From positions 256,835 through 320,834 of the forward strand of contig CAWJDC010000006.1 in assembly GCA_963841575.1 (NCBI GenBank): 64,000 nt of DNA, read 5' to 3'. Below are positions 3,133-31,840 of the stretch, in pieces. Under the pieces are notes generated by a model. The model was not told where the DNA came from. It saw only the letters and a program-made list of their open reading frames with translations, and did no database searches. The position numbers were made by a program, and so were the translations under genes. The DNA comes from an uncultured Alphaproteobacteria bacterium (lineage in GTDB: Bacteria > Pseudomonadota > Alphaproteobacteria > Rhizobiales > Xanthobacteraceae). Each line of letters begins with the position of its first letter. Positions within the stretch are counted from its first letter, which is position 1.

Positions 3133-3264
3133 CAAATCGAGCGCTGATGAGGCACTGCCGTCACCTGAGCTGCGGCGGAGCGAGCCTCGAAGGGCGACAG
3201 CCGGGCCGTGCATCCTTCGAGGGCCGCTCGCGCGACCGCCTCAGGATGACGGAACGGAATCGCG

Positions 3265-6200
3265 ATGATCTCGAAATTCTTCATCGAGCGGCCGGTGCTG
3301 GCGAACGTCCTCGCCATCCTGATGATTTTGATCGGCGCGGTGGCGCTCTACGGCCTGCCGATCGCGCAATATCCCGACGTCGTGCCGCCGACCGTGCAGG
3401 TGACGACCCGCTATCCGGGCGCCAGCGCGCAGACCCTGATCGACACCGTCGCGCTGCCGATCGAGCAGCAGGTCAACGGCGTCGAGAACATGCTGTACAT
3501 GCAGTCGACCAGCGCCAGCGACGGCAGCTACACGCTGACCGTGACCTTTCAGATCGGCACCAATCTCGATAACGCGCAGATCCTGGTGCAGAACCGGGTC
3601 TCGAGCGCGCTGGCGTCGCTGCCGCAGGCGGTGCAGGCGCAGGGCGTCACGGTGCAGAAGCGCTCGACCGCGATCCTGCTGTTCGTCACCTTGACCTCGC
3701 CCGACAAGCCGTTACGACAGCCTCTATCTCGCCAACTACGCCACCATCAAGCCTCAAGGACGAGCTGTCGCGGCTGCCCGGCGTCGGCAACGTCAACGTG
3801 TTCGGCGCCGGCCAATATTCGATGCGCATCTGGCTCGATCCGGACAAGCTGAAGGCGCGCAGCCTCAATGCCCAGGACGTGGTGCAGTCGCTGCAGCAGC
3901 AAAGCCAGCAGGTGACCGCCGGCCAGGTCGGCGCGCCGCCGACGCCGCCCGGCGTCGATTTCCAGTACACGCATCGAGCTCGCCGGGCAGCCTTGCCGAG
4001 GTCGGCGAGTTCGAGAACGTGATCGTCAAGACCGGCAATAACGGCGAAGTCACGCGGCTGCGCGATATCGGCCGCGTCGAGCTCGGCGCCCAGACCTACG
4101 GCCAGATTTTCACGCTCAACGGCAAGCCGGCCGCGGGCATCGGCATCTTCCAGTCGCCCGGCGCGAACGCGCTCAACGTGGAGCAGGCCGTCAAAGCCAA
4201 GATGAGCGGCGCTGGCGCGCGACTTCCCCCAGGGCCTCGTCTACGCGGTGCCGTTCGACACCACGATCTTCGTCAACGCCTCGATCCACGAGGTCTACAA
4301 GACGCTGATCGAGGCGGCCGTGCTCGTGCTGATCGTGATCTTGGTCTTCCTGCAGGACTGGCGCGCCATGCTGGTGCCGGCGACGACCGTGCCGGTGACC
4401 ATCATCGGCGCCTTCGCCGCGATGTGGGCGCTCGGCTTCACGGTGAATTTCTCGACGCTGTTCGCGATCGTGCTGTCGATCGGCATCGTGGTCGACGACG
4501 CCATCGTCGTGGTCGAGGGCGCCGCGCACAATATCGAGCGCGGCATGAACGGCCATGACGCGGCGATCCGCGCCATGAACGAGCTGTTGGGGCCGATCAT
4601 CGGCATCACGCTGGTGCTGATGTCGGTGTTCCTGCCGGCGGCATTCCTGCCCGGCCTCACCGGCCGCATGTATGCGCAGTTCGCGCTGGTGATCGCCGCG
4701 ACCGCGCTGCTCTCAGCGCCATCAACGCGGTGACGCTCAAGCCGACGCAGTCCGCGCTGTGGCTGCGCCCGCCGGTGCCGCCGGAGCGGCGCAATGCGTT
4801 CTTATCGCGGCTTCAATACCGTCTATGGCCGGCTCGAGCATCGGATACGACGCGCCTGATCGGCCGCATGGTGTCGCGTGCCGGCCTGATGACGATCGTC
4901 GCTTTCGTCATCATCGCGGTTGCCGGCTGGGGGCTCGCGCGGGTGCCGACCGGCTTTCTGCCGATCGAGGACCAGGGCTATCTGCTCGTCGCCGTGCAAT
5001 TGCCTGACGGCGCCGCGCTGGAGCGCACGCAGGCAGGCGCTCGATCAGGTCTCGGCGATCGTGCGCAAGGATCCCGGCGTCGATCAGGTGCTCACCATCG
5101 CCGGCATTTCGGCGCTCGACAACAATGCGACGCTGGCCAATGCCGGCGTCGCCTATGTGGTGCTCAAGGACTGGAGCGTGCGCGACAGATCTGCTCACGG
5201 TTTACGGCCGGCTGTCGCAGGCGCTCGCCGACGTCGACGCGCGCGTTCTGGTGCTGCCGCCGCCGCCGATCCAGGGCATCGGCAACGCCGGCGGCTTCAC
5301 CATGCAGGTCGAACTGCGCGACGGCAGCACGGATCTCGCCAAGCTGCAGAGCATCACCAACACGATCGTCGCCAATGCGCAGTCGCAGAGCGCAATGCAG
5401 CGCGTCTCGACCTCGTTCCGCGCCGTGGCGCCGCAACTGCGAATCGAGGTCGATCGCGTCAAGGCGCAGACGCTGCATGTCTCGGTCGATCAGGTGTTTG
5501 CGACGCTCGCGACCTATCTGGGCTCGACTTACGTCGGTGCAGTTCAACAAGTTCGGCCGCGTGTTCCAGGTCTATGCGCAGGCCGACGCGCCGTTCCGGC
5601 TGCGGCCGCGGGACATCGAAAACCTTTCGGTGCGCAATCAGCAAGGCGACATGATCCCGCTCGGCACGCTCGCCGCCATCTCGCCGACGGTCGGCGCGCC
5701 GCTGATCAGCCTCTACAATCTTTATCCGTCGTCGAGCATCATCGGGCTGCCGGCGCCGGGCTTCAGCTCCGGCGAGGCGATCCGTCTGATGGAGCAGGAT
5801 GCGGAGCGGACCTTGCCGCCGCGGCACCGGCACCGAATGGACCGCGATGTCCTATCAGGAGAAGGTCGTCGGCAATCAGATGTATTTCGTGTTCGCGATG
5901 GCGATGCTGCTGGTCTATCTGGTGCTGGCCGGCCAATACGAGAGCTGGTACGCGCCGCTCGCGGTGATCCTCTCGGTGCCGCTGGCGCTGGTCGGCCCGG
6001 TGCTGGTGCTGACGTTGCTGCCGCATCGACAACAATCTCTACACCCAGATCGGCCTCATCCTGCTGATCGCGCTGTCGGCCAAGAACGCGATCCTGATCG
6101 TCGAGGTCGCGCGCGAGCACCGGCGTGCGCGACGGCAAGCCGATCCTCGAAGCGGCGGTCGACGCCGCGCGCGCGCGGTTCCGGCCGATCCTGATGACGT

Positions 6201-16800: not shown

Positions 16801-16847
16801 CGTTCCGCGCGTACGCCGGTAAGCTAAACTGAAGAGTGGAGTGCGCT

Positions 16848-17414
16848 ATGAAGACACCCGCAACGATGATCGCCGTGGTTCGGGATGCGTCAAGCGCGGC
16901 GGTCGCCGACACCTTTCGAACCCTGGTCGATCAGTGGCAAAAGACCGTTCGCCTTGCCGGTCTCATTGCGGAAGGCCACGGTCTTGCCGACCGGGCTTGC
17001 AGCGCTGGATTCCTGCGCAACATCGCGACCGCGGAACGGTTTTCGATATTCGAGGATACGGGACCCGGCTCGACCGTGTGCCACCTCGACGGCGCCGGCG
17101 CGCTCAGCGCGTCCAAGGCGGTGCAGCGCGATATTGCGGCGGGATGCGATCTCGTTTTATTGAACAAATTCGGCAAACTTGAAGCGGCCGGGGAGGGCCT
17201 CGCCGGCGCCTTCAGGGCGGCAATCGAAGCCCGCATCCCCCTGCTGACGTCGGTTTCTCCTGCGTCCGAACCGGCTTGGAAAAAACTCGCCGGACCGTCG
17301 TACGATGTCTTTCCTGCCGACCCCGTTGCAATCGACGCATGGTGGCGAGCGATCCACACGGCGTCAGCGGCTGCTGTGTCGTTCGATCACCACGGCCAGC
17401 AGCCAGGGCGATAA
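16848..17414 (+). CDS. DUF2478 domain-containing protein
   Basis: MKTPATMIAVV...GCDLVLLNKFGKLEAAGEGLAGAFRAAIEARIPLLTSVS. The ATG at 16848 is preferred over the upstream alternative start. Confidence 0.65.
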   Translation: MKTPATMIAVVRDASSAAVADTFRTLVDQWQKTVRLAGLIAEGHGLADRACSAGFLRNIATAERFSIFEDTGPGSTVCHLDGAGALSASKAVQRDIAAGCDLVLLNKFGKLEAAGEGLAGAFRAAIEARIPLLTSVSPASEPAWKKLAGPSYDVFPADPVAIDAWWRAIHTASAAAVSFDHHGQQPGR

Positions 17415-17423
17415 TCGGTCCGT

Positions 17424-18431
17424 TCAATCGATGGGAGGTTTGGTGCCCGTTTCGCGCGCGTGCATATCGAGCCACCGTCCCTCGACGTCGCGGCTCATGA
17501 TGTAAACCTTGCGGCTGGTAGCATCGCCGTACCGGAAGCAGAGCTCGTCGAGCGCAGGAATTCGCCGATAGTCGTCCTGATAGTGACGTTCGCGCGCGGC
17601 AAAAATCTCTTCGCAAGACGAATTTTCCAGGTCATCGATGTTGGTCTCGTCGACATCGAGCTTCAGCATCAACCTTCGCGGCTGGCTCGCGGTTTCCAGC
17701 ATCACGGGGATCCATTCCCGCTCCGACAGCCAGTTGTCGAATTTCCGCGGCCGAAGCTGTTTGATCCGTGGCGGCAGGCTATCGCGGATGTCTTCGGTGA
17801 TCCGTTCGCTCTCATATCGCGTGGCCAGCCCGGCATAAAAGAACGGGCTTGCGATGCGGCTGCTGACCTCTCCCGGAATATCGTCGAGGATGTCGAGCAG
17901 GCGGTCGAAAATCGGCAGTGTGTTTTGCGTGAGGAAGAGCTTTTCGCGGCGAACCATGCCGCGCTCGCCGCCCAACCGCAGGATCGCGGTCTGATAATCG
18001 AAGTCGCCGGCGCGCCCATTCCATCGATCGTGCGTTGCGCCGCAGCCCGCGAACGAGGCATGGAAGCCGGCGATGCCGGCGGCTTTTCGTTCCTCAAGCC
18101 ACGTTGTCAGCGCATCACCATGCCGAATGCGAAGGCCGCCGAGATTGAGTATCTCGAACTTGCCGCCGCGCCTGGCCCGGAGACGGGCAACGCCCTTCAG
18201 GGTCTCGAGATCGTAATCAAGCGATGGACCGACAAAAATCCCGATCTCGAGGTCATCGCGGCGGTCCGATTGCTTCCAATCGTGAAACCGATGAACAAGC
18301 CGTTCAAACCGCGAAAACGGCAACGCGCTGCGCTTTCGCGATTCCGAGATCAGGCAATAGCGGCAGATGTGCGCGCACGGCGCGTGGCGCAACGAAAACC
18401 GCAGTCCTTTACCCACAATCTCTCTTGGCAT
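17424..18431 (-). CDS. Radical SAM protein (no SPASM-type Cys cluster; C-terminal domain unrecognised)
   Basis: Intact 335 aa with the CX3CX2C motif CAHICRYC at residues 19-26. It starts 15 bp after the stop of the S8 peptidase gene on the same strand. Confidence 0.8.
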   Translation of the reverse strand: MPREIVGKGLRFSLRHAPCAHICRYCLISESRKRSALPFSRFERLVHRFHDWKQSDRRDDLEIGIFVGPSLDYDLETLKGVARLRARRGGKFEILNLGGLRIRHGDALTTWLEERKAAGIAGFHASFAGCGATHDRWNGRAGDFDYQTAILRLGGERGMVRREKLFLTQNTLPIFDRLLDILDDIPGEVSSRIASPFFYAGLATRYESERITEDIRDSLPPRIKQLRPRKFDNWLSEREWIPVMLETASQPRRLMLKLDVDETNIDDLENSSCEEIFAARERHYQDDYRRIPALDELCFRYGDATSRKVYIMSRDVEGRWLDMHARETGTKPPID

Positions 18432-18446
18432 GTCGAACTCGAGCGA

Positions 18447-20035
18447 TCACGGCTTCGCACGCGCGGCCTCGTCTTTCAAAACCGATTTGCCGTCGAGCCG
18501 CGTCACGGCACGATAGGCGTTCGCGAGACCAGCGCCAAAGGCCGAATCGTCGCCGGACGGCTTGAGCGGCTTGGCTGTCGTGGTGATGATGGTGCGGATA
18601 TCCTGTGGCTTGAGTGCCGGATAACGCTCCAGCAAGAGTGCCGCGATGCCGCTGACGTGCGCTGCGGCCACCGAGGTTCCCGTGGTGATCTGGTAGGAGT
18701 CATCGGGCGCCAGCGCGAGAATCTCGACCCCCGGGGCGGCCACCGCGATATAGCGGCCGCGATTGTCCATCTTGAACATGCCGTCGTTGCTGTCGGTCGC
18801 CGCCACCGCAATCACATCGGGATCGGCTGCCGGGTACGGCGGCTTGGAATTCGGCCCGGCATTGCCGGCTGCCGCGATCAGCACAATGTCTTTCTCGTAA
18901 GCTGCCGCCAGCATGCGATGGAGTGCTGGATCGGCGGGGCCGGTAAAGCTCATATTGACGACGCGCGCGCCATTGTCGGCGGCCCATTGCAGGCTCTTGT
19001 AGATCGCAAACGAGGTTCCGTTGGCTTCGCCGGGTGTGTCGTCGAACGCGCGCGCCGCCAGCACCTTGGCGTCCGGCGCGATACCCATGAGCTTGCCGTG
19101 TGCGGCAATCGCGCCCGCAATGGCGGTGCCATGCAGTTGCGGCTTGTCTTCGCCGCCGAGCGCATCGAAGTTTTTCACGATTGTCGCATCGAGATCGGGT
19201 TGGGTTGCATCGATGTCCGAATCGATCACCGCGACTGGAATATCCTTTCCCATCGCCAGGTGATGCGCTTCGGCGATGTGCAGTTTGCTCAGAACGTATT
19301 GGGCGGCATCGCCCGGCGTGCTCGCAGGGGTTTTGCTGAGTTGTTCCTGCAGCGCGAAAATATAATTGGGTTGCGCGCTGGCGACGATGCGTTCGTTCTC
19401 GAGCACGCCCACCACATCCGGCACCGATACGGCCGCGGCCGATGCGCCAGCGATAGAGCGTGCCGCCGAGCAACGGGAAGCTTTGGGTTTCGAGCTGCGT
19501 CAGATCGTATTGCCGCGCGATCCGATCGATCGCTTGCGGCGTGGCGTTTGCGGCGAATTCGGTGATGACCTCGTCGCGGACGTAGCGTTGCTCGCCGCGC
19601 GGCGGCACGCCGCTGCCGTTGTTGCCGCCGCTTCGGCGTCCCGCCTGGCGACGCGGTTGGCGCGACCGCCGCTTGGCAGCAGGGTATTTCGCCGACAGTA
19701 CGGTCGATCTCGCCGCGGCCGACGATCCGATGATGTCTACCGCCGCCGCCTTCGCCGGGTCCGGGCCCTCTGCCGATCCTGCCGGGGCCGCGCTCGACGA
19801 CAATGCCGACGCCGCGCCGCGGCGGCGGCGGCGGTTGTCGCCACCGCCGCACGCCCATGCCCGGTCTGCCAAAGCCGCCGCCCATCGCCGGCGGATGGAA
19901 GCCGCCCATCCGGCCGAAGCCAAACATGCCGAACGCTACCGCCGCGCGCGAACCGCCAATCGAGCCCGCGGTCACGAGCAAACCGCAGAGCAGCAACGCC
20001 AGGATCAGCCGCGAAGTCATGAAGCTCTTTCGCAT
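18447..20035 (-). pseudogene. Secreted S8 (subtilisin-like) serine peptidase with a Gly-rich N-region and I9-like propeptide; about 2 frameshifts in the N-terminal third
   Basis: RBS gggag and signal peptide MRKSFMTSRLILALLLCGLLVTAG. Gly-rich tract FGMFGFGRMGGFHPPAMGGGFGRPGMG. Propeptide YVRDEVITEFAANATPQAIDRIARQYDLTQLE. Catalytic motifs VAVIDSDID, HGTAIAGAIAA and GTSVAAAHVSG. Confidence 0.85.
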
Positions 20036-20140
20036 GGCAAACTCCCGATATGGCGGCCGCTTAGCGCAGCGGCCCATCAGCAAAACCTCCGGAGCCGAGG
20101 CGGCGTCACAGCCGCGCCGCCCTCGACGTTCGTTCGGCCG

Positions 20141-20812
20141 TTATTCAGTCATGGCGATGAAGCCGACGACCTTATCGTTCTGCAGCGTCTTTACGATGCG
20201 CATCAGGTCGGCCTTCGGCAACTTGGTTGACGCCACACGCACCCGGTATAAGCCGCCGGCCGATGGCCCGCCAACGATGCTCAGCTTGTTGGTTTCCAGG
20301 AAATTTGCGGTATCGGCGGCGGTCGCCTGGGGCTGGAAGCGCATCAGGACGTAGGCGCCTTCGCCGGAAACGTCGGCCGGCACCGAGGCTGTTTCATAAC
20401 GGCCCGAGCCGATGTCCTTGAACAGGATGCCGCCAATCAGCGCGGCCTGCAGCACGATGGCGAGCGCTGCGGCGCTGGCCGACCACGCCAATGTCTGTGG
20501 CGACAGACTTGCGAAAAACTCGCCGATGCGGGCGCCGAGGCTGATCGAACCCGCGCGCCGCCGCGCCGGTTGCGCGTCGATCTTGGCGAACAGAACGTCC
20601 ACGTCGCGTGCCGAAGGTTCGCCCATCGCCTCGCTGGCATAGGTTTCTTGTGCGAACTCCTCGCGCACCCATTCGTAGCGGCGGGCGAGCTCGGGGTCGC
20701 TGGCGAGCGCGGCTTCCACCTGCTGCGCCTCGCGATCGTCGAGCGCTCCCGCGGCATGCCACGGCAGCAACAGTTCGATTTCGCTGGGTTCGCGATTGTC
20801 TGCTGTGGTCAT
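20141..20812 (-). CDS. Anti-sigma factor (single-pass membrane protein)
   Basis: The ATG at 20812 overlaps the sigma gene stop (ATGA). N-terminal anti-sigma domain LLLPWHAAGALDDREAQQVEAALASDPELARRYEWVREE. One TM helix LAWSASAAALAIVLQAALIGGILF, followed by a periplasmic domain. Confidence 0.8.
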   Translation of the reverse strand: MTTADNREPSEIELLLPWHAAGALDDREAQQVEAALASDPELARRYEWVREEFAQETYASEAMGEPSARDVDVLFAKIDAQPARRRAGSISLGARIGEFFASLSPQTLAWSASAAALAIVLQAALIGGILFKDIGSGRYETASVPADVSGEGAYVLMRFQPQATAADTANFLETNKLSIVGGPSAGGLYRVRVASTKLPKADLMRIVKTLQNDKVVGFIAMTE

Positions 20813-21394
20813 GGCCAACCTCGATCGATGCCTTGCTCCTTGAGGAGCTCGGATAATTTCTTGCGGGCGTAGAACATCCGCGTCTTCACGGTCGCCTCCG
20901 GGATGCCGACGATGCCGGCGACGTCCTCCACCGACTTATGCTGGTAGTACACAAGGTTGACGATTTCCCGGTGCTCCGCTGACAGCTTGGTCGAGGCACT
21001 GCCGCAACGCCGCGGCCTTGTCTTTCTTGGCCAAGGTGATTTCCGGATCGTCGGCGTCATCCTCGATTGCACCGGCATTCTCCTCATCCAGTTCCTCCGT
21101 CGGCCGGCGCTGCAGGACTGTCAGTGCCTTGAAGCGGGCGATACTGAAAATCCATGTCGAGACCGCCGACCGCCCCTCGAACGTCCCGGCTTGCCGCCAG
21201 ACGTCGAGGAACACGTCGCTGTTCAAATCTTCCGCCGTGGCGTCGTTGCGCACCATACGCAGCAGGAACCGATAAACGCGGATCCGATAGCGCGCGAACA
21301 ACTCCGCCATCGCGTGCCGATCGCCCTTGGCGATCCGCACGATCAGAACCTCATCCGAAGTCGTTTGCATCGGCAGGTCCATCGGCTCGTCCAT
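20809..21394 (-). pseudogene. ECF-type RNA polymerase sigma-70 family factor (one frameshift)
   Basis: Region 2: AELFARYRIRVYRFLLRMVRNDATAEDLNSDVFLDVWRQAGTFEGRSAVSTWIFSIARFKAL. Region 4, in a second frame: LSAEHREIVNLVYYQHKSVEDVAGIVGIPEATVKTRMFYARKKL. The true start may be an internal Met (see the promoter call). Confidence 0.85.
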
Positions 21395-21395
21395 T

Positions 21396-21421
21396 AGGCA
21401 GCCGGCGGGCGCGCAGGTTCA
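21396..21421 (-). promoter_or_regulatory. Candidate ECF-type promoter upstream of the sigma gene
   Basis: The minus strand reads TGAACC-N16-GCCT. The same TGAACC-N16-G(T/C)C(C/T) layout occurs on the opposite strand in front of the Gly-repeat gene. Confidence 0.25.
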
Positions 21422-21601
21422 CATGAAATCGAAAAAAAATAACGCGGCGGGTCCGGGCACCTGGCGCTTGGCCCGATTGTCCTCTTTCAGGCGCAAATCG
21501 GCAAGGTAGCGGCGCTCGCGCCGGGTTTTCGACCGGGTTCGTCCTGAGCCAGTCCTGATTGTCCAAGGAGCCGCGCCGATTTCGGCCGATGCCTGCGCGC
21601 T

Positions 21602-21627
21602 TGAACCTTTCTCCGGGAACGCTGTCC
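21602..21627 (+). promoter_or_regulatory. Candidate ECF-type promoter upstream of the Gly-repeat/His-rich protein gene
   Basis: TGAACC (21602-21607), 16 nt, then GTCC (21624-21627), about 35 nt upstream of the ATG at 21663. This resembles the GGAAC/GAACC -35 and GTC -10 logic of ECF promoters. Confidence 0.25.
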
Positions 21628-21662
21628 CACAGGCATCGGAATTCAAACCTTGGAGAACGACC

Positions 21663-22317
21663 ATGTCACGCAAAATCATCCTTACTCTAGCGGCGGCCAC
21701 GATTGCTGTTGCGACGCTCGCTTCGCAGTCGGCAGACGCCAGGGGCTTCGGTGGGTTCGGCGGCGGCCGCTCCTTTGGCGGCGGCGGTGCTCACTTTGGT
21801 GGCGGCCGGTCCTTCGGTGGCGGCGCCCGCTTCGGCGGCGGCCGATCCTTCGGCGGCGGCGGCCCCCGCTTCGTCGGTGGCCGTTTCCCCGGACACGGCG
21901 GCGGACACACCTTGATCCCGATCTTCAACCCGGGCCACGGCGACCCCATCCATCCGATTCATCCGATCCATCCCCCGATCCACGTCGGCTGGCATTGGCA
22001 CGACCACCATCACGGCTACCGCGTGTTCCGCGACGGGCGCTGGATTGTCCTCGACGAACCGATCGGCGATACGGCCGTTGTGGAACTCGGTTGCCGTGGC
22101 GCCCGCAGCCGGCCCCGGACCGTGCACGTGCCTGACCAAGAACTACACGCCGGACGGTCTCGTGGTGTTTGCCGATATCTGCACCAAGGAAGCCGCCACC
22201 GCGCCGGTCGACGGCAGAGCCGCCGACGCTACCCCGGTGCCGACCTCTACGGATTACGCCGGCCGCACCTATCAGGACTATCTGACCGACCACCCACAGG
22301 CCGCGCAGAAGAATTGA
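21663..22317 (+). pseudogene. Secreted Gly-repeat / His-Pro-rich protein (one frameshift near 22090)
   Basis: RBS ggaga and signal peptide MSRKIILTLAAATIAVATLASQSADA. About four (GGG)RSFGGGG-x-F repeats, then HPIHPIHPIHPPIHVGWHWHDHHHGY. C-terminus in a second frame: PCTCLTKNYTPDGLVVFADICTKEAA...DHPQAAQKN*. Confidence 0.7.
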
Positions 22318-22351
22318 AGAAGCCGCCAGCGCACGTTGCGATTTGAAGACG

Positions 22352-22383
22352 AAGGCCGCTTGCGAAAATTCGCGGGCGGCCTT
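22352..22383 (+). terminator. Hairpin, candidate intrinsic terminator after the Gly-repeat gene
   Basis: aaggccgcttgcgaa-aa-ttcgcgggcggcctt followed by ttgccgtt. Confidence 0.4.
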
Positions 22384-22446
22384 TGCCGTTGGTTTGCCCA
22401 CAGGCGCGAGGCGGTTCCCTTCGCGCGGCAGGCCCGCTAAGCTCCG

Positions 22447-23550: not shown

Positions 23551-23578
23551 TACATCCATACAGAAAGCCAACCCCACC

Positions 23579-24390
23579 ATGACCCATAAAATGCCCCGCG
23601 AGATCGCGTCCGGCGTGTTCTGGATCGGCGACTGCCTGGCGCAGCGCCACAAGGGCAAGGTCTATCACGGCTACAACGCCGCGTTCCTGGTCGCCGGCGA
23701 TGACGCGTCGATCCTGGTCGAGACCGGTCACCCGAAGGATTTTCCGGTCATCGAGCGGCATCTGAACGAGCTGTTCGCGCGCGGCGTGGCGCCGCTCAAA
23801 TATCTGTTCGTCACCCACCAGGAAACGCCGCATTGCGGCGGCCTCGGCCGCATCCTGAAAACCTTTCCCGACGTGCTCCTGTGCGGCGACGTCAGCGACT
23901 ACCACCTGGCCTTTCCGCAATACGAACACCGCATGCGCTGGATGAAGGAGGGCGACGCGATCGATCTCGGCGGCCGCACGCTGATGGCGGTCGAGCCGGT
24001 GATCCGCGACCTGCGCACCACCTGGTGGGGTTTCGACACCAGGGAGCGCGTGCTGTTTCCGGGCGACGGCTTCGCCTACAGCCACTACCACGAGGACGGC
24101 CATTGCGGCCTGGTCGCCGAGGAAGCGGTCTCGCTCGATCTGCCGGACGTGTCGTCGACCTTCGCGGACCTGGCGCTGTTCTGGACCAAGTTCGCCGACA
24201 TGAACGTCTATTGCGACCGGCTCGACCATCTCATCGCGCGGCTCGACGTCAAGACCATCGCGCCGACCCACGGCCTGCCGATCACCGACGTCAAGACCAC
24301 GGTGCCCAAGGTGCAGGAAGGTTTGAAGGCCGCCGCGCTGATGCCGGAAGTCGGGGACCAACGAGAAGATGGCGGCGGTCGGTTTCGTAG
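23579..24390 (+). CDS. MBL-fold metallo-hydrolase family protein (3' end uncertain)
   Basis: MTHKMPREIASGVFWIGD...FLVAGDDASILVETGHPKDF...YLFVTHQETPHCGG...LFPGDGFAYSHYHEDGHCG...IAPTHGLP. The open frame runs through the following REP element into the next gene, so the true stop is unclear. Confidence 0.7.
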
Positions 24391-24393
24391 CTC

Positions 24394-24469
24394 GGATGGA
24401 GCGCAGCGCAATCCGGGAACAGCGTTTGAGCCCGACAGGCTCATCCCCGGAACGCGCCGCGCTCTATCC
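24394..24469. repeat. REP-like imperfect inverted repeat
   Basis: ggatggagcgcagcgcaatccgg (24394-24416) pairs with ccggaacgcgccgcgctctatcc (24447-24469), about 20 of 23 positions complementary. It is the family that yields ...RMERSAIRE... pseudo-peptides. Confidence 0.6.
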
Positions 24470-24499
24470 GGGCGACTTTTAGATATTGGCAGGCACACC

Positions 24500-25379
24500 A
24501 TGAAACAGCTCACCATCGGCGACGTCACCATCACCAGCATCATCGAGCGCGACGGGCCGTGGCGGCGGCCGGAGGATATGTTCCTGGCCTACGATCCCGA
24601 GGTCGGTAGGCGTCATCTTGCCGAGCTCGATCCGCGAGTGTTCGATCCGGCGTCGGGCAAGATGGTCATCACCTACCAGACCTTCGTGGTGCGCACGCCG
24701 CAAGCACACCATCCTGATCGACACCTGCACCGGCGAGGACAAGGGCTATCCGGCGCCGATGGATTTTCCGAAGCAGCCGTGGCTCGACGGTTTTCATGCC
24801 GCCGGCCTGCGCTTCGAGGACATCGATTACGTGTTCTGCACGCATCTGCACATCGACCATACCGGCTGGAACACGATGCTGCGCGATGGCCAATGGGTGC
24901 CGACCTTCCCGAACGCGAAATACATTTTTCACAAGGGCGAATACGCCGCGTGGGAGGAATCCAACAAGCGCGGCGAGAACCGCCCGGGCGGCGGCGGCAA
25001 CGTATGGGGCTATAATTGCGAGCCGGTGGTCGCGGCCGGGCAGGCGCTCCTGGTCGATGACGACTTTGCGCTCGACGATACGCTCTGGCTGACGCCGACG
25101 CCGGGCCACTCGCCGTGCCATTGCTGCGTCAATATCCGCTCGCGCGGCCAGCACGCGGTCGTCGTCGGCGATCTGATGCACCACGCCTTGCAATGCCGCG
25201 AGCCGGACTGGTCGACGGTGTTCGATTGGGACCCGGCGCAGGCGGCGCGGTCGCGGCGAAAATTTCTCGCCGAGGCGGCCGGCACCGGCACGTTCGTGCT
25301 GCCGATCCATTTCCCGCATCCGACCACCGGCCTGATCGAGGCGGACGGCGCGCGGTTTCACTATAGGTTCGTGCGGTAG
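24500..25379 (+). pseudogene. MBL-fold metallo-hydrolase (lactonase-like), one frameshift near 24700
   Basis: MKQLTIGDVTITSIIERDGPW...; TILIDTCTGEDKGYP; HxHxDH motif CTHLHIDHTGWN; TPTPGHSPCH; VVGDLMHH. Confidence 0.8.
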
Positions 25380-30076: not shown

Positions 30077-31140
30077 TCAGTTCAGCCGCAGTTCGGTGAT
30101 GTGCCGCGGATCCGGCTTCAGCTCGCCCTTCTCGACGCGCTTGACGATGTCGGTCAGCACCGCATTGGCGCGGCAGGTCAGGCCAAGCTTCTCGCCCTCG
30201 CGCACGATGTGGCCGTTGATGAACTCGATCTCGGTGCGCCGGCCCTTCTGCATGTCCTGGCCCATCGAGGGGCGTTGCCCGGACGCGGTCTTCTTGCCGT
30301 CCTTGAAGCGCTGCGCGTCATAGGCGCTGGTCGCCGCCTCGTCGCCTTCGCCCGCGCGCGCGATCGTCTCCGGCGGCAGATGCAGGATGTCCTCGAGCTG
30401 ATAGCCGTGCGCCTGTCCGACCCGGATCGCCTCGCTGCCGATGCGCGCCGCGAAGCGGCGGATCGGATCGTTCTTGAGCATCTCGCCGCCGGAGAGACCG
30501 GTGCAGGCCGAGAGCCCGTTCTGCATGGCGTTGGCGACGAGCTTCGACCAGCGCTCGCCCCACAGATTGTTGGTCACCATGGCGCTGTCGGCATAAGCCG
30601 ACCAGACGGCCGATCTTCTTGGCGCGGTCGGTGATGCGGCCGTGCACTTCGCCGGCGCGAAACACGGTGTGCGCCGCGCCGCCCTTGCCGGCGCCGCGAT
30701 GGACGTGGCCGGGCTCCGGCAGGTTGACGGTGATGCTGCTCGCGATGCAGCCGAGCGTCTTGCCCCAGCCGACCACGCCGGCGATGGTCTCCTCGTTCAT
30801 GCAGTTCTGCAGCGACACGACGAAGCCGTCGGGCGCGAGATACTGCCTGATCATCATGGTCGCCCACGCGGTGTCGTAGGATTTCATGCAGACGAAGGCG
30901 ATGTCGACCGGCTTCTCCTTGGCAAGCTGCTGCGCGTCGGTGACATGCAGCGCCCGCACCGGCACGGTGAATTCCGGCTACGTCGTGGGCGTGAGTGACG
31001 CGCAGGCCGTGCTTGCGCATGTGCTCGACATGCTCGGGCCAGGGATCGATGAAGGTCACGTCCTCGCCGGCCTGCACCATATGCGCGCCGGCATAGCCGC
31101 CGACCGCGCCGGCTCCCACGATGACGATCTTGTGGCCCAT
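30077..31140 (-). pseudogene. Ketopantoate reductase (ApbA/PanE) family oxidoreductase, about 3 frameshifts
   Basis: MGHKIVIVGAGAVGGYAGAHMVQAGEDVTFID; VDIAFVCMKSYDTAWATMMIRQYLAPDGFVVSLQNCMNEE; C-terminus SMGQDMQKGRRTEIEFINGHIVREGEKLGL. Confidence 0.8.
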
Positions 31141-31167
31141 GCCGTCCTCCCAACTGCGATGACGCGA

Positions 31168-31840
31168 TTAACCGCGGAACGCCGCCTTGATGGCTTCCAC
31201 CGTGGCGCCGGGCGCGCGCGCGGCGGCGATGATGCGCGCCTCCTGCTTCATGAGGCCGTCGAGCGCGGCCGCCATCGCGTCGATCTTGTCGATCGGCACA
31301 ACGACGGCGCCGTGGCGGTCGGCATGGATGAGGTCGCCGCTTTTCACCGCCATGCCGTGGATGGTGACGGGAATGCCGAAATCGACAACATGCACATAGG
31401 CGTGCGACGGCGCGATCGAGCCGGCCAGCATCTGAAAGCCCGGGGCGACCGTGGGATGTCGCGCACCGAGCCGTTGGTGATGGTGCCGAGGCAGCCGAGC
31501 GCCTTGTGCACGTTGGTCTGCACCTCGCCCCAGAACGCGCCGTAGCCGGCGGGCTCGTCCTTGTCCTCGATTACACGATGCTCGGCCGCGGCGCCGCCGC
31601 GACGTAGTCGAGATAGTCCATCCGCTTTTGCATGTAGCTCGGCCCGCTCACAGCGTCGCGGGCGCGGATCGTCACGGTCTTGGCGAAGCCGACCATCGGC
31701 GGCAGGTCGGGAAACGGGCAATGCAGGTGGCTCGTCGTATAGCCCGCGCCGCGGCGTTCCGGCGCCACGATCTCGATCAGGTTGCACACGGTCGGCGTAT
31801 CGATCGACCGCAGAAATGTAAACTGGCTCTCCGAAAGCAT
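31168..31840 (-). pseudogene. RraA family protein (second copy), about 2 frameshifts
   Basis: MLSESQFTFLRSIDTPTVCNLIE...; GAFWGEVQTNVHKALGCLGTITNGSVRDI; HAYVHVVDFGIPVTIHGMAVKSGDLIHADRHGAVVVP. Confidence 0.75.

Follow-up and report, generated by a model that had tools for sequence, protein, structure and literature searches.

Pairs of a radical SAM enzyme and a subtilase are known, QhpD/QhpE being an example, and a first-pass annotation of the stretch of DNA analysed here (64 kb, hereafter the window) had read one of its loci as such a pair beside a repeat-peptide gene, that is, as a peptide-maturation system comparable to the GRRM systems. Five genes lie where that annotation had placed them: a radical SAM (rSAM), an S8 subtilase, an anti-sigma and an ECF sigma gene run head-to-tail on the minus strand, and a Gly-repeat/His-rich gene diverges from them. 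Their reading frames, taken as intact, did not hold up, as three of the five are not open in the window and had been silently stitched. The genes and their immediate surroundings are as follows.

16836-17414, plus strand: DUF2478 gene (Pfam DUF2478, 3.6e-34), convergent with the rSAM gene and outside the ECF module
17424-18431, minus strand: radical SAM gene, 335 aa, intact, motif CAHICRYC
~18447-20035, minus strand: secreted S8 subtilase gene with two frameshifts, at ~19712-19734 and ~19430
20141-20812, minus strand: single-pass anti-sigma factor, 223 aa, intact; an N-terminal anti-sigma domain, then a TM helix
20809-21370, minus strand: ECF sigma gene, conserved start ATG 21370 (MQTTSDE...), one extra base at ~20990
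21663-22317, plus strand: gene for a Sec-exported Gly-repeat/His-rich protein, frame broken at ~22082-22093
22350-22385, plus strand: terminator-like hairpin (16-pair stem, T-rich tail), closing the Gly/His transcription unit

Sigma ends and anti-sigma begins within a shared ATGA, and the spacings, given earlier as about 100 and 15 bp, measure 105 bp from anti-sigma to S8 and 15 bp from S8 to rSAM. The assignment of the hairpin is based on its own length and position, the total of terminator-like sites in the region being no higher than in shuffled sequence. We consider it probable that positions 18447-22385 constitute a self-contained ECF signalling module, that the rSAM gene is an unrelated neighbour, and that the frameshifts are assembly errors.

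The rSAM protein scored 14.8 bits against Pfam PF04055, below the cutoff of 29.5. Its CX3CX2C motif (C19, C23, C26) does not vary among 60 family members, the most divergent at 26% identity, and its AlphaFold model (pLDDT 94.9) finds its best PDB matches in the radical SAM cores of SkfB, EpeE, SuiB and BlsE at TM 0.38-0.47, so that the identity first assigned from the motif is confirmed by both the three cysteines and the predicted fold. No further invariant Cys was found among the 60 members, in line with the reported absence of a SPASM cluster. If the rSAM enzyme and the subtilase matured the Gly-repeat protein and/or the Gly-rich N-terminus of S8 under ECF control, in a RiPP- or GRRM-like manner, one would expect features that the locus partly offers: the rSAM gene begins 15 bp past the S8 stop with no terminator-like site found in between, SkfB, EpeE and SuiB are peptide-modifying enzymes, a Gly-rich tract is present in both candidate substrates, and the QhpD/QhpE precedent exists. 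However, the linkage itself is not conserved: the rSAM gene occurs at 0 of the 81 S8 loci surveyed, and S8, ECF or Gly-protein genes at 0 of 13 rSAM loci, including L096, where an 88%-identical orthologue follows unrelated upstream genes (L097 falls in the same 90% cluster). The structural matches cover the generic core only, and, apart from weak similarity in the core, none of the 60 family members hit a maturase model (GRRM, QhpD or other) at E<=0.01. S8 likewise stays below the QhpE cutoff (79.9 versus 165), neither protein meeting any of the RiPP family models searched (GRRM-system, QhpD/E and others). The compartments do not match either, as the rSAM protein carries no export signal and is cytoplasmic, whereas both proposed substrates are Sec-exported. 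The maturation reading is thus close to refuted. The rSAM protein belongs to a stand-alone family that is genuine but uncharacterised, its gene lies beside the module without being part of it, and the locus is therefore not a peptide-maturation system.

The only recurring neighbour of the rSAM gene is DUF2478, the two forming a convergent pair in L009, L011, L096 and L097 that moves as its own block. A lineage-specific rearrangement probably brought the rSAM gene next to S8, where read-through transcription would be possible. Recent recruitment in one lineage, with read-through from the sigma operon placing the rSAM gene under ECF control and creating a lineage-specific functional link, would fit the 15-bp gap free of any terminator-like site or promoter motif; the same S8/rSAM junction is also present in a second data set, on a short-read contig (L011, 99.94% identical over the rSAM region). 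Against it, the junction occurs in a single genome lineage, no ribosome-binding site is evident before the rSAM start, the rSAM-DUF2478 block moves independently, and co-transcription would not imply a common function, which makes such a link unlikely.

The remaining genes behave as a unit. Across the 81 metagenomic S8 loci, an anti-sigma gene is present in 45 of the 53 with at least 900 bp of upstream sequence and the sigma/anti-sigma pair in 38 of the 45 with at least 1500 bp; the 7 lacking the pair carry the most distant S8s (48-55% identity). In related loci the anti-sigma gene always lies between sigma and S8, and on a Methylocapsa plasmid, which carries a rearranged version, S8 is still linked to the pair. 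L013 and L098-L101 have a layout matching the one seen here, including the divergent gene, which is unannotated there.

The stitched sigma protein matches Pfam Sigma70_r2 (4e-14) and Sigma70_r4_2 (3e-13) and NCBIfam PRK12515 (304.8 bits, cutoff 236). The mechanical ORF extends from 20809 to 21394, its start falling within a candidate promoter, and ATG 21370 is the more likely start. Two candidate promoters were located.

21394-21421, minus strand: candidate ECF-type promoter of the sigma operon, -35 TGAACC at 21416-21421, -10-like GCTGCCTAA ending at 21394
21602-21630, plus strand: candidate ECF-type promoter of the divergent gene, -35 TGAACC at 21602-21607, -10-like GCTGTCCCAC at 21621-21630

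The pattern TGAACC-N13-GCTG (with the next base, TGAACCT-N12-GCTG) has exactly two exact matches in the 64 kb, one each at 20-40 nt 5' of the two divergent start codons, and the motif was found neither 5' of the S8 gene nor 5' of the rSAM gene. An A/T-rich tract lies immediately 5' of the sigma-operon promoter. Among related loci with enough upstream sequence, nearly all carry a homologous TGAACC-N15/16-[GA]CGAC site before the conserved sigma start, at a distance of 51-54 nt in most and of 43-47 nt in 5 of the more distant loci. A site on the opposite strand precedes a divergent secreted His/Gly-rich gene in 12 loci from two clades (L013, L015, L016, L021, L029, L054, L061-L065 and L067). The -10 element is not uniform, clades differing between GCTGCC and GCGAC. 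Conserved order and a common promoter motif thus bear out the view that the ECF pair, S8 and the divergent gene belong together.

The divergent gene, read by three-frame translation and by tblastn with the intact orthologue from L013 (191 aa), encodes the secreted product announced for it, with N-terminal GGGRSFGGG repeats, a stretch rich in His and Pro, and a conserved C-terminal motif bounded by Cys (PGPCTCLTKNYTPDGLVVFADICTKE). A tandem DNA repeat occupies 21756-21883 within it, and the protein reached the cutoff of no Pfam or NCBIfam family. His/Gly-rich versions, long or short (76-95 aa), lie upstream of sigma in only about two-thirds of the loci with enough flank. A Gly-rich tract is common to this protein and S8.

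The subtilase has the parts of a secreted zymogen.

19934-20035, minus strand: Sec-type signal peptide, then a Gly/Phe/Arg-rich linker
~19347-19600, minus strand: prodomain, Pfam Fervidolysin_NPro-like
~18450-19346, minus strand: catalytic domain, Pfam Peptidase_S8

The signal, catalytic residues and propeptide described earlier are all recovered, as is the Gly/Phe/Arg tract behind the signal peptide: the catalytic domain matches Peptidase_S8 at 159.9 bits (1e-46) with D/H/N/S present, and the prodomain matches Fervidolysin_NPro-like at 27.9 bits (cutoff 21; 3e-6). The best NCBIfam model is mycosin, at 187.9 bits and below its cutoff of 278.75. Thirty intact homologues of ~500 aa share this architecture, including the Gly-rich tract following the AxA cleavage site.

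The anti-sigma factor scored below cutoff against Pfam zf-HC2 (18.6 bits) and an NCBIfam anti-sigma model (1.5e-7), its homologues (n=4276) carrying the source names RsiW or RskA. Its C-terminal half is divided as follows.

~20420-20494, minus strand: TM helix, residues 107-131
20144-20419, minus strand: periplasmic part, C-terminal to the TM helix
20144-20398, minus strand: periplasmic domain, residues ~139-223, resembling the S8 prodomain

Profile-profile comparison (hhalign) of this domain with the S8 prodomain gave P=1e-4 over 60 columns at a probability of 53-57%, with a score of 28.1 compared to 11.6 +/- 2.5 (maximum 21.4) in column-shuffled controls, 0 of 300 of which reached it. Of 24,736 Pfam models, the best for the domain is Fervidolysin_NPro-like (2 of 29 members, E=0.004), which is also the prodomain family borne by the co-encoded S8. 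AlphaFold gives a beta-alpha-beta-beta-alpha topology (pLDDT 70-79), which is a common fold, and a whole-model Foldseek search with the anti-sigma factor returned no match at E <= 0.001.

These observations suggest how the module might work. A PRK12515-type sigma factor would be held at the inner membrane by the single-pass anti-sigma factor and, once freed, would read the two divergent promoters (TGAACC-N13-GCTG(C/T)C), one driving its own operon of sigma, anti-sigma and the Sec-exported subtilase zymogen, the other the monocistronic gene for the Sec-exported Gly/His protein. Because the periplasmic domain of the anti-sigma factor is built like the inhibitory prodomain of the subtilase, we infer that the mature enzyme may, upon a presumed signal, dock on this domain and trim it, acting as a dedicated site-1 protease, after which intramembrane cleavage would free sigma. 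The effect would be activating and, since the protease is made from the sigma operon, would close a positive-feedback loop. The Gly/His protein would be a co-regulated output, possibly binding metal in the envelope and/or acting as the protease's substrate or competitor.

The protease could be a regulon output only. If this were an ordinary ECF stress regulon, both the subtilase and the Gly/His protein would be outputs acting as envelope effectors, an unrelated signal and general proteases would control the anti-sigma factor, and the prodomain likeness would reflect a common fold without interaction. Gene order and common promoters fit an autoregulated regulon just as well, fold-level support for prodomain identity is weak, and co-regulated proteins rich in His point to an output related to metals. 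On the other hand, the likeness specifically concerns the prodomain of the protease encoded alongside, exceeds 300 of 300 composition-preserving shuffles and leads to that same family among all Pfam models, and S8 stays linked to the pair even where the order is rearranged. We regard the ordinary regulon as possible and rather less probable than not.

Four 1-base frameshifts are distributed over the sigma, S8 and Gly-repeat genes. The sigma break at ~20990 was mapped in a tblastn search using the intact orthologue of L013; compared with L102, the closest relative from short reads, the gene carries one additional base, seen as a single 1-nt gap. If the frameshifts were real mutations, this would be a decaying pseudogene cluster and the module copy in this genome would be dead. 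The breaks are part of the deposited assembly, where the S8 gene is represented in NCBI's annotation of the source contig by just a 321-aa fragment (P0121), and 0 of the 4 fall in a long homopolymer. However, breaks are as dense or denser in housekeeping-type genes throughout the window: an AcrB-type gene is spread over four reading frames, ApbA and RraA-like genes are likewise interrupted, and a heuristic count puts abutting frame switches in the 64 kb at up to 27. The one part of the window for which an independent short-read contig (L011) is available aligns without gaps, and the broken genes otherwise retain all conserved residues. Occurring throughout the window, the breaks therefore look like assembly noise; they are most likely indel errors of a noisy assembly, and decay of the locus is very improbable.

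Judged from the loci compared, the signalling module appears to be widespread in soil alphaproteobacteria, for instance in Xanthobacteraceae-like MAGs, and unstudied, its sigma factor being typed here as PRK12515 rather than by published ECF group, so that an earlier description of its group's context is possible. It differs from GRRM/RiPP-like systems in that the adjacent rSAM protein has neither a SPASM nor an auxiliary Cys cluster. The resemblance between anti-sigma factor and prodomain, a newly observed and modest one, differs from true propeptides in its C-terminus: these have a long C-terminal tail that reaches the active site, whereas the anti-sigma factor stops a few residues past its last strand.

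Gene layout was read from a mechanical listing of open reading frames (ORFs) together with a three-frame translation. The five genes described in the first-pass annotation are present with the spacings it gave: the sigma and anti-sigma genes overlap by an ATGA, and gaps of 105 bp and 15 bp follow along the minus strand.

17424-18431 (-): radical SAM-like ORF, 335 aa, with the motif CAHICRYC
about 18447-20035 (-): S8 subtilase
20141-20812 (-): anti-sigma factor, 223 aa
ends at 20809 (-): ECF sigma factor
21663-22317 (+): secreted Gly-repeat/His-rich protein (Gly/His protein)

While the genes themselves are thus confirmed, their reading frames are not continuous, as frameshifts that the annotation left unreported break three of them. 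The sigma gene changes frame at about 20990 owing to one extra base relative to the intact orthologues at L013 (an intact orthologous locus) and L102 (the closest short-read relative), the S8 gene changes frame twice (at about 19712-19734 and about 19430), and the Gly-repeat gene does so at about 22082-22093. Comparison with the same orthologues shows that the proteins stitched together across these breaks were essentially right. The NCBI annotation of the 482,842-bp source contig retains only a 321-aa fragment of the S8 protein. Exact-sequence look-ups with this fragment and with the window anti-sigma factor matched no contigs. Genes beyond the module are split as well: four frames of an AcrB-family gene match successive parts of a single Pfam model, and further split genes encode an ApbA/PanE protein (three frames), an RraA-like protein (two frames) and a protein of the metallo-beta-lactamase fold. 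The split regions outside the module are as follows.

3250-4730 (+): frameshift-split gene region (AcrB family)
30083-31607 (-): frameshift-split gene region
23558-25370 (+): frameshift-split gene region

A GC3-based heuristic counts up to 27 abutting frame switches in the 64 kb. Indel density appears to be roughly one per 2-4 kb, and ORF-based readings of the window therefore need frame correction. An independent short-read contig (L011) covers one stretch only, window positions 17012-18694, to which it is 99.94% identical without gaps. We infer that the frame breaks are assembly indel noise and not decay of the locus. Metagenome-assembled genomes with the labels Xanthobacteraceae, Stellaceae or uncultured Alphaproteobacteria are the nearest relatives.

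The radical SAM gene, the subtilase and the repeat protein had initially been read as a peptide-maturation system under ECF control. The survey of gene linkage proposed along with that reading produced the very result it had named as its refutation, an absence of conserved linkage: S8, ECF or Gly-protein genes were found within 6-10 kb at none of 13 radical SAM loci, and a radical SAM gene at none of 81 metagenomic S8 loci. The radical SAM loci comprised ten species-representative genomes, one 87%-identical relative, an 88%-identical relative (L096) and a locus from the same 90% cluster (L097). Synteny between the window and L096 ends exactly at the start of the radical SAM gene, whose only recurring neighbour is a convergent DUF2478 gene, which the window carries at 16836-17414. 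When the ORFs lying up to 6 kb on either side were clustered for 11 radical SAM loci, DUF2478 was all that these had in common; in a tblastx comparison, the 1.5 kb ahead of the gene proved conserved only pairwise, between close genomes. By these two results, there is no hidden precursor or partner gene. A RiPP-type maturation cluster was rejected, as maturase, precursor and protease genes show no conserved co-location, and the radical SAM gene is not part of the unit. The convergent radical SAM/DUF2478 pair, with gaps of 9-110 bp, is kept in the window (16836-18431), L011, L096, L097 and a further related locus, L009; the family has no other stable neighbourhood, and the pairing may give a clue to what the family does.

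The radical SAM protein belongs to a small orphan family: at E ≤ 0.001, a collection of 1.84 billion proteins yielded 352 representatives. C19, C23 and C26 of its CX3CX2C motif, the binding site of the [4Fe-4S] cluster in radical SAM enzymes, do not vary in 60 family members, the most distant at 26% identity; these members have no further invariant Cys, which leaves no SPASM/twitch motif. The Pfam model PF04055 scores the window protein at 14.8 bits, under the cutoff of 29.5, and a precomputed match to it is present in many close homologues. The AlphaFold model (pLDDT 94.9) returned 24 PDB matches at E ≤ 0.001, 23 to radical SAM enzymes and one to dihydrodipicolinate synthase, with the radical SAM matches reaching a TM score of only 0.38-0.47; as modelled, the protein has the partial TIM-barrel core fold of the radical SAM superfamily. 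By profile and fold the core is nearest to the radical SAM/SPASM maturases (SkfB, EpeE/YydG, SuiB), the family profile matching the SkfB core at 3e-5, and it is followed by a C-terminal domain, about 140 aa long, that is peculiar to the family. No curated model fits the family, matches to SPASM families being restricted to the core and far below cutoffs. The model of the GRRM systems, to which the first reading had pointed, is absent from the 19 families matched by any of the 60 members, and the Gly protein has no NCBIfam match at E ≤ 0.1 and hence none to the GRRM Gly-rich repeat model. Unlike the SPASM maturases, GRRM systems and QhpD/QhpE, the window gene has no conserved precursor or protease neighbour. 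The protein carries no export signal, whereas both proposed substrates are Sec-exported. Its closeness to the SPASM-type peptide maturases is confined to the core, and it is a member of none of these systems. This outcome eliminates a false lead to a new radical SAM peptide-maturation family and illustrates how adjacency within one noisy assembly misleads. An identity of the S8 protein with QhpE, a protease of quinohemoprotein amine dehydrogenase maturation, was also considered and rejected (equivalog model NF049966, 79.9 bits, cutoff 165).

The link between the ECF pair, the S8 gene and the Gly protein, in contrast, is supported and extended by a conserved gene order and a common promoter motif. 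Homologues of the S8 protein, about 500 aa long, have one common architecture: a signal peptide ending in AxA leads into a Gly-rich low-complexity tract (consensus FGMGGFGRMGGFGRP), after which come a prodomain of the fervidolysin type and a catalytic domain whose triad does not vary. The triad columns D, H and S and the oxyanion N are unchanged across 30 homologues, and all four residues are present in the window protein, which scores 159.9 bits against PF00082 and thus belongs to peptidase family S8. Assignment to the mycosins, the S8 proteases of type VII secretion, was rejected (TIGR03921, 187.9 bits, below the cutoff of 278.75). Of the 53 loci with 900 bp or more of flank, 45 have an anti-sigma gene upstream of S8; of the 45 with 1.5 kb or more, 38 have sigma and anti-sigma genes together, and the seven lacking the pair hold the most distant S8 proteins. 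On the 3' side, 81 loci show lineage-specific housekeeping genes (reductase, cytochrome c, Rieske protein), indicating that S8 closes the operon. One clade (L098-L100) has a same-strand 65-aa DUF5808 ORF about 110 bp after S8, which was not seen in the window.

The frame-corrected sigma factor matches both Sigma70_r2 and r4_2 and scores 304.8 bits with PRK12515 (cutoff 236) and 100 bits with TIGR02937 (cutoff 42.9), which places it among ECF (group 4) sigma factors. For the anti-sigma factor, the N-terminus scores 18.6 bits with zf-HC2 against a cutoff of 22.2, and 31.6 bits with NF052375 against 100; its position, the ATGA overlap with sigma and the single TM helix fit a class I anti-sigma factor. 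A hairpin at 20096-20125, in the gap between the anti-sigma and S8 genes, was considered as an attenuator and dropped, its fold energy being no better than that of shuffled sequences (z = -0.98). In the protein collection clustered at 90% identity, homologues of the anti-sigma factor fall into more than 4000 clusters and those of S8 into more than 4700; among the matches listed most are metagenomic, and the module examples we examined bear generic names only. A rearranged copy of the module occurs on the Methylocapsa polymorpha plasmid pRX1 (L095; NZ_CP136863.1, 191900-196240) in the order S8, small ORF, sigma and anti-sigma; the three module proteins bear generic RefSeq names. Its S8 carries about seven tandem 17-aa repeats (AEELDPISTGAVPPIKS) in place of the Gly-rich tract, its anti-sigma factor retains the prodomain-like C-terminal domain, and one TGAACC-N16-CGAC motif lies ahead of the small ORF.

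Alignment of the regions upstream of sigma revealed a conserved TTGAACC followed 13-16 nt on by a conserved GCGACC or GCTGCC. Most loci have 51-54 nt between TTGAACC and the conserved sigma start; in five of the more distant ones the distance is 43-47 nt. In the 64-kb window, the form TGAACCT-N12-GCTG occurs exactly twice.

21399-21421 (-): promoter motif before sigma, TGAACCT-N12-GCTG match
21602-21624 (+): promoter motif 39 nt 5' of the ATG of the Gly-repeat gene, TGAACCT-N12-GCTG match

A broader promoter pattern matches the same two sites only, with a chance expectation of about 0.6 from mononucleotide shuffles, and the motif is absent ahead of the S8 and radical SAM genes. Twelve related loci likewise have the opposite-strand site, each time before a gene for a Sec-exported His/Gly-rich protein. 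Judging from position and conservation, these predicted promoters probably depend on the module's own sigma factor. Together with a long hairpin with a T-rich tail at 22350-22385, 3' of the Gly/His-protein gene, the picture is one of a compact autoregulated regulon, in which sigma, anti-sigma and S8 form one operon and the gene for the Gly/His protein is monocistronic.

Several further features were observed around these promoters. The annotated and mechanical sigma start (ATG at 21394) falls within the predicted -10 element; the start kept across loci is the ATG at 21370 (MQTTSDE...), and gene callers likewise over-extend the sigma gene in related contigs. Directly 5' of the sigma -35 TGAACC lies a conserved A/T-rich block (consensus GCAAATTTTCTTCGATTTC, window 21425-21445 (-)), with an equivalent in related loci, which could be an UP-like element or the site of another regulator. 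An additional ECF-type motif is located just 3' of S8 in L034 and L036 (8165-8186 (+)), where it precedes a gene for a 167-aa predicted membrane protein, and in L092 (8800-8825 (+)); such copies may mark further lineage-specific regulon members.

The Gly/His protein exists in two forms. The long form, found in the clade of the window, has Gly repeats, a His/Pro stretch and the segment PGPCTCLTKNYTPDGLVVFADxCTKE, while the short form of a more distant clade (76-95 aa) reads HGHGGHGHFHGHWG...CYVxKxVxTPxGPRxRRxTVCD. Common to both are a signal peptide and the plan of a His/Gly/aromatic tract followed by a Cys-bounded hairpin. Neither form matches a curated family in Pfam or NCBIfam, compositional matches being sub-threshold. 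Metal binding, suggested by the His/Gly/Trp motifs, is speculation at this stage. The Gly tract of the protein is similar to the N-terminal tract of S8 itself. At four loci (L060, L072, L081 and L092) S8 has no Gly-rich tract, and the divergent His/Gly gene and the opposite-strand promoter were not found; loci with an S8 Gly tract (within L013-L077) mostly have the divergent gene, which hints at co-variation in a small sample.

The periplasmic part of the anti-sigma factor (residues about 139-223) aligns with the prodomain of the co-encoded S8. The ectodomain consensus is GAYALIRFxPQASAADITKFLETNKLSIxxGPxAGGLYRVRVA...DLxRIVKxLQxDKVVGF and that of the prodomain is EVITEFxPNATPQAIDQIARRYxLTQLESQxFPLIGSTLYRWRIGGRRSVADVVGALExERIVA. 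Profile comparison with hhalign gave P = 1e-4 and a probability of 57% over 59-60 columns. None of 300 column-shuffled prodomain profiles reached the real score (28.1, compared with 11.6 ± 2.5 and a maximum of 21.4 for the shuffles), and the reversed prodomain profile scored 16.5. The best Pfam model for the ectodomain is Fervidolysin_NPro-like (PF22148), which is also the family of the S8 prodomain; the match (E = 0.004) scores below the cutoff of the model and appears in only 2 of 29 members. In the AlphaFold model (pLDDT 70-79 for the ectodomain) the topology is beta-alpha-beta-beta-alpha, compatible with the beta-alpha-beta-beta-alpha-beta of the prodomain reference fold. A Foldseek search with the full anti-sigma model, which is poor outside its two domains (pLDDT 56.5), returned nothing at E ≤ 0.001, and a PDB sequence search with the ectodomain profile gave chance-level matches only. 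Considering these data together, the ectodomain is probably a prodomain-like domain. This similarity could be due to either a common fold only, with S8 and the Gly/His protein as mere outputs of the sigma factor, or a functional contact between protease and anti-sigma factor. The former, the main rival, is possible though doubtful; the latter is plausible, and we put it forward tentatively.

Subtilase prodomains bind tightly to their own protease and are then degraded by it, as in the I9 and propeptide families. If the contact exists, the prodomain-like domain on the anti-sigma factor would be a docking site and likely substrate for mature S8. Trimming of the ectodomain would constitute the site-1 event, licensing intramembrane cleavage and thereby freeing sigma; with S8 encoded alongside sigma in one operon, the loop would reinforce itself. 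The Gly/His protein would be a co-induced output of the regulon. It may also be a substrate, competitor or partner of S8, given the similar Gly tract and the four tract-less S8 loci where the divergent gene was not found. The furthest-reaching possibility, which we hold with low confidence, is a bacterial ECF pathway with a dedicated site-1 subtilase that would recognise the anti-sigma factor by its prodomain-mimicking ectodomain, and with a small self-contained regulon exporting a possibly metal-binding Gly/His protein.

Among the devices by which bacteria signal from envelope to genes, ECF sigma factors form the largest group; how the anti-sigma factor is inactivated has been established for a minority of ECF groups only. 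The module, abundant in soil metagenomes, offers a concrete and cheaply testable hypothesis for that step, namely a co-encoded subtilase acting with a prodomain-like sensor domain. If true, this would add site-1 proteases of a new class and a new principle of recognition, and prokaryotes would have an equivalent of the eukaryotic logic in which S1P, a subtilase, acts ahead of S2P. The module also provides a compact orthogonal set of sigma factor, anti-sigma factor, protease and promoter for synthetic circuits.

The closest comparators are ECF systems controlled by regulated proteolysis, such as sigmaE-RseA-DegS/RseP of E. coli, sigmaW-RsiW-PrsW/RasP of B. subtilis and the Prc/CtpA proteases of cell-surface signalling. 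Like these, the module has a sigma factor whose gene is apparently transcribed together with that of a single-pass anti-sigma factor, which combines a cytoplasmic anti-sigma domain with an extracytoplasmic sensor domain; it also has a probably autoregulated ECF-type promoter and, as proposed here, a site-1 cut in the ectodomain by a periplasmic serine protease. It differs in having, as candidate site-1 protease, an S8 subtilase whose gene belongs to the sigma operon, and in an ectodomain that resembles the prodomain of that protease. We know of no regulated-proteolysis ECF system with a subtilase or a prodomain mimic. Sources name homologues of the window anti-sigma factor RsiW or RskA. The SigK model of the SigK-RskA pair (ECF19) matches the window sigma factor at 3e-28, below the family cutoff, and RskA (4nqw) is a Foldseek match to the N-terminal helices of the anti-sigma factor (probability 0.51); the periplasmic domain of the window protein is unrelated to that of RskA.

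A literature search found no paper tying a subtilase to a membrane anti-sigma factor, the sole mention being the subtilase context of ECF54. In this actinobacterial group, subtilase, carboxypeptidase or CHAT proteins lie in the conserved context; on the basis of synteny only, control by proteolysis has been put forward, with the sigma factor itself as the proposed target of the protease (PMC8999054). ECF54 resembles the module in the conserved position of an ECF sigma gene beside a subtilase gene; it belongs to another phylum and lacks an anti-sigma factor, whereas in the module a class-I-like membrane anti-sigma factor is encoded between sigma and S8. The main text of the ECF classification paper mentions no subtilase context, a paper on ECF factors of B. 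japonicum gave no match to the group of this sigma factor, and ECF databases may already record its context.

In the eukaryotic SREBP pathway, Site-1 protease, an S8 enzyme of the subtilisin/kexin type, acts before Site-2 protease, a homologue of RseP. The sequence relation to the module is limited to the S8 family, and S1P recognises SREBP otherwise than through a prodomain-like module of the kind proposed here. If the inference holds, the logic would be the same, with a subtilase cut on the luminal or periplasmic side leading to intramembrane cleavage and release of a transcription factor. Set against these systems, the module remains a widespread, unnamed variant of ECF signalling with a testable new twist.
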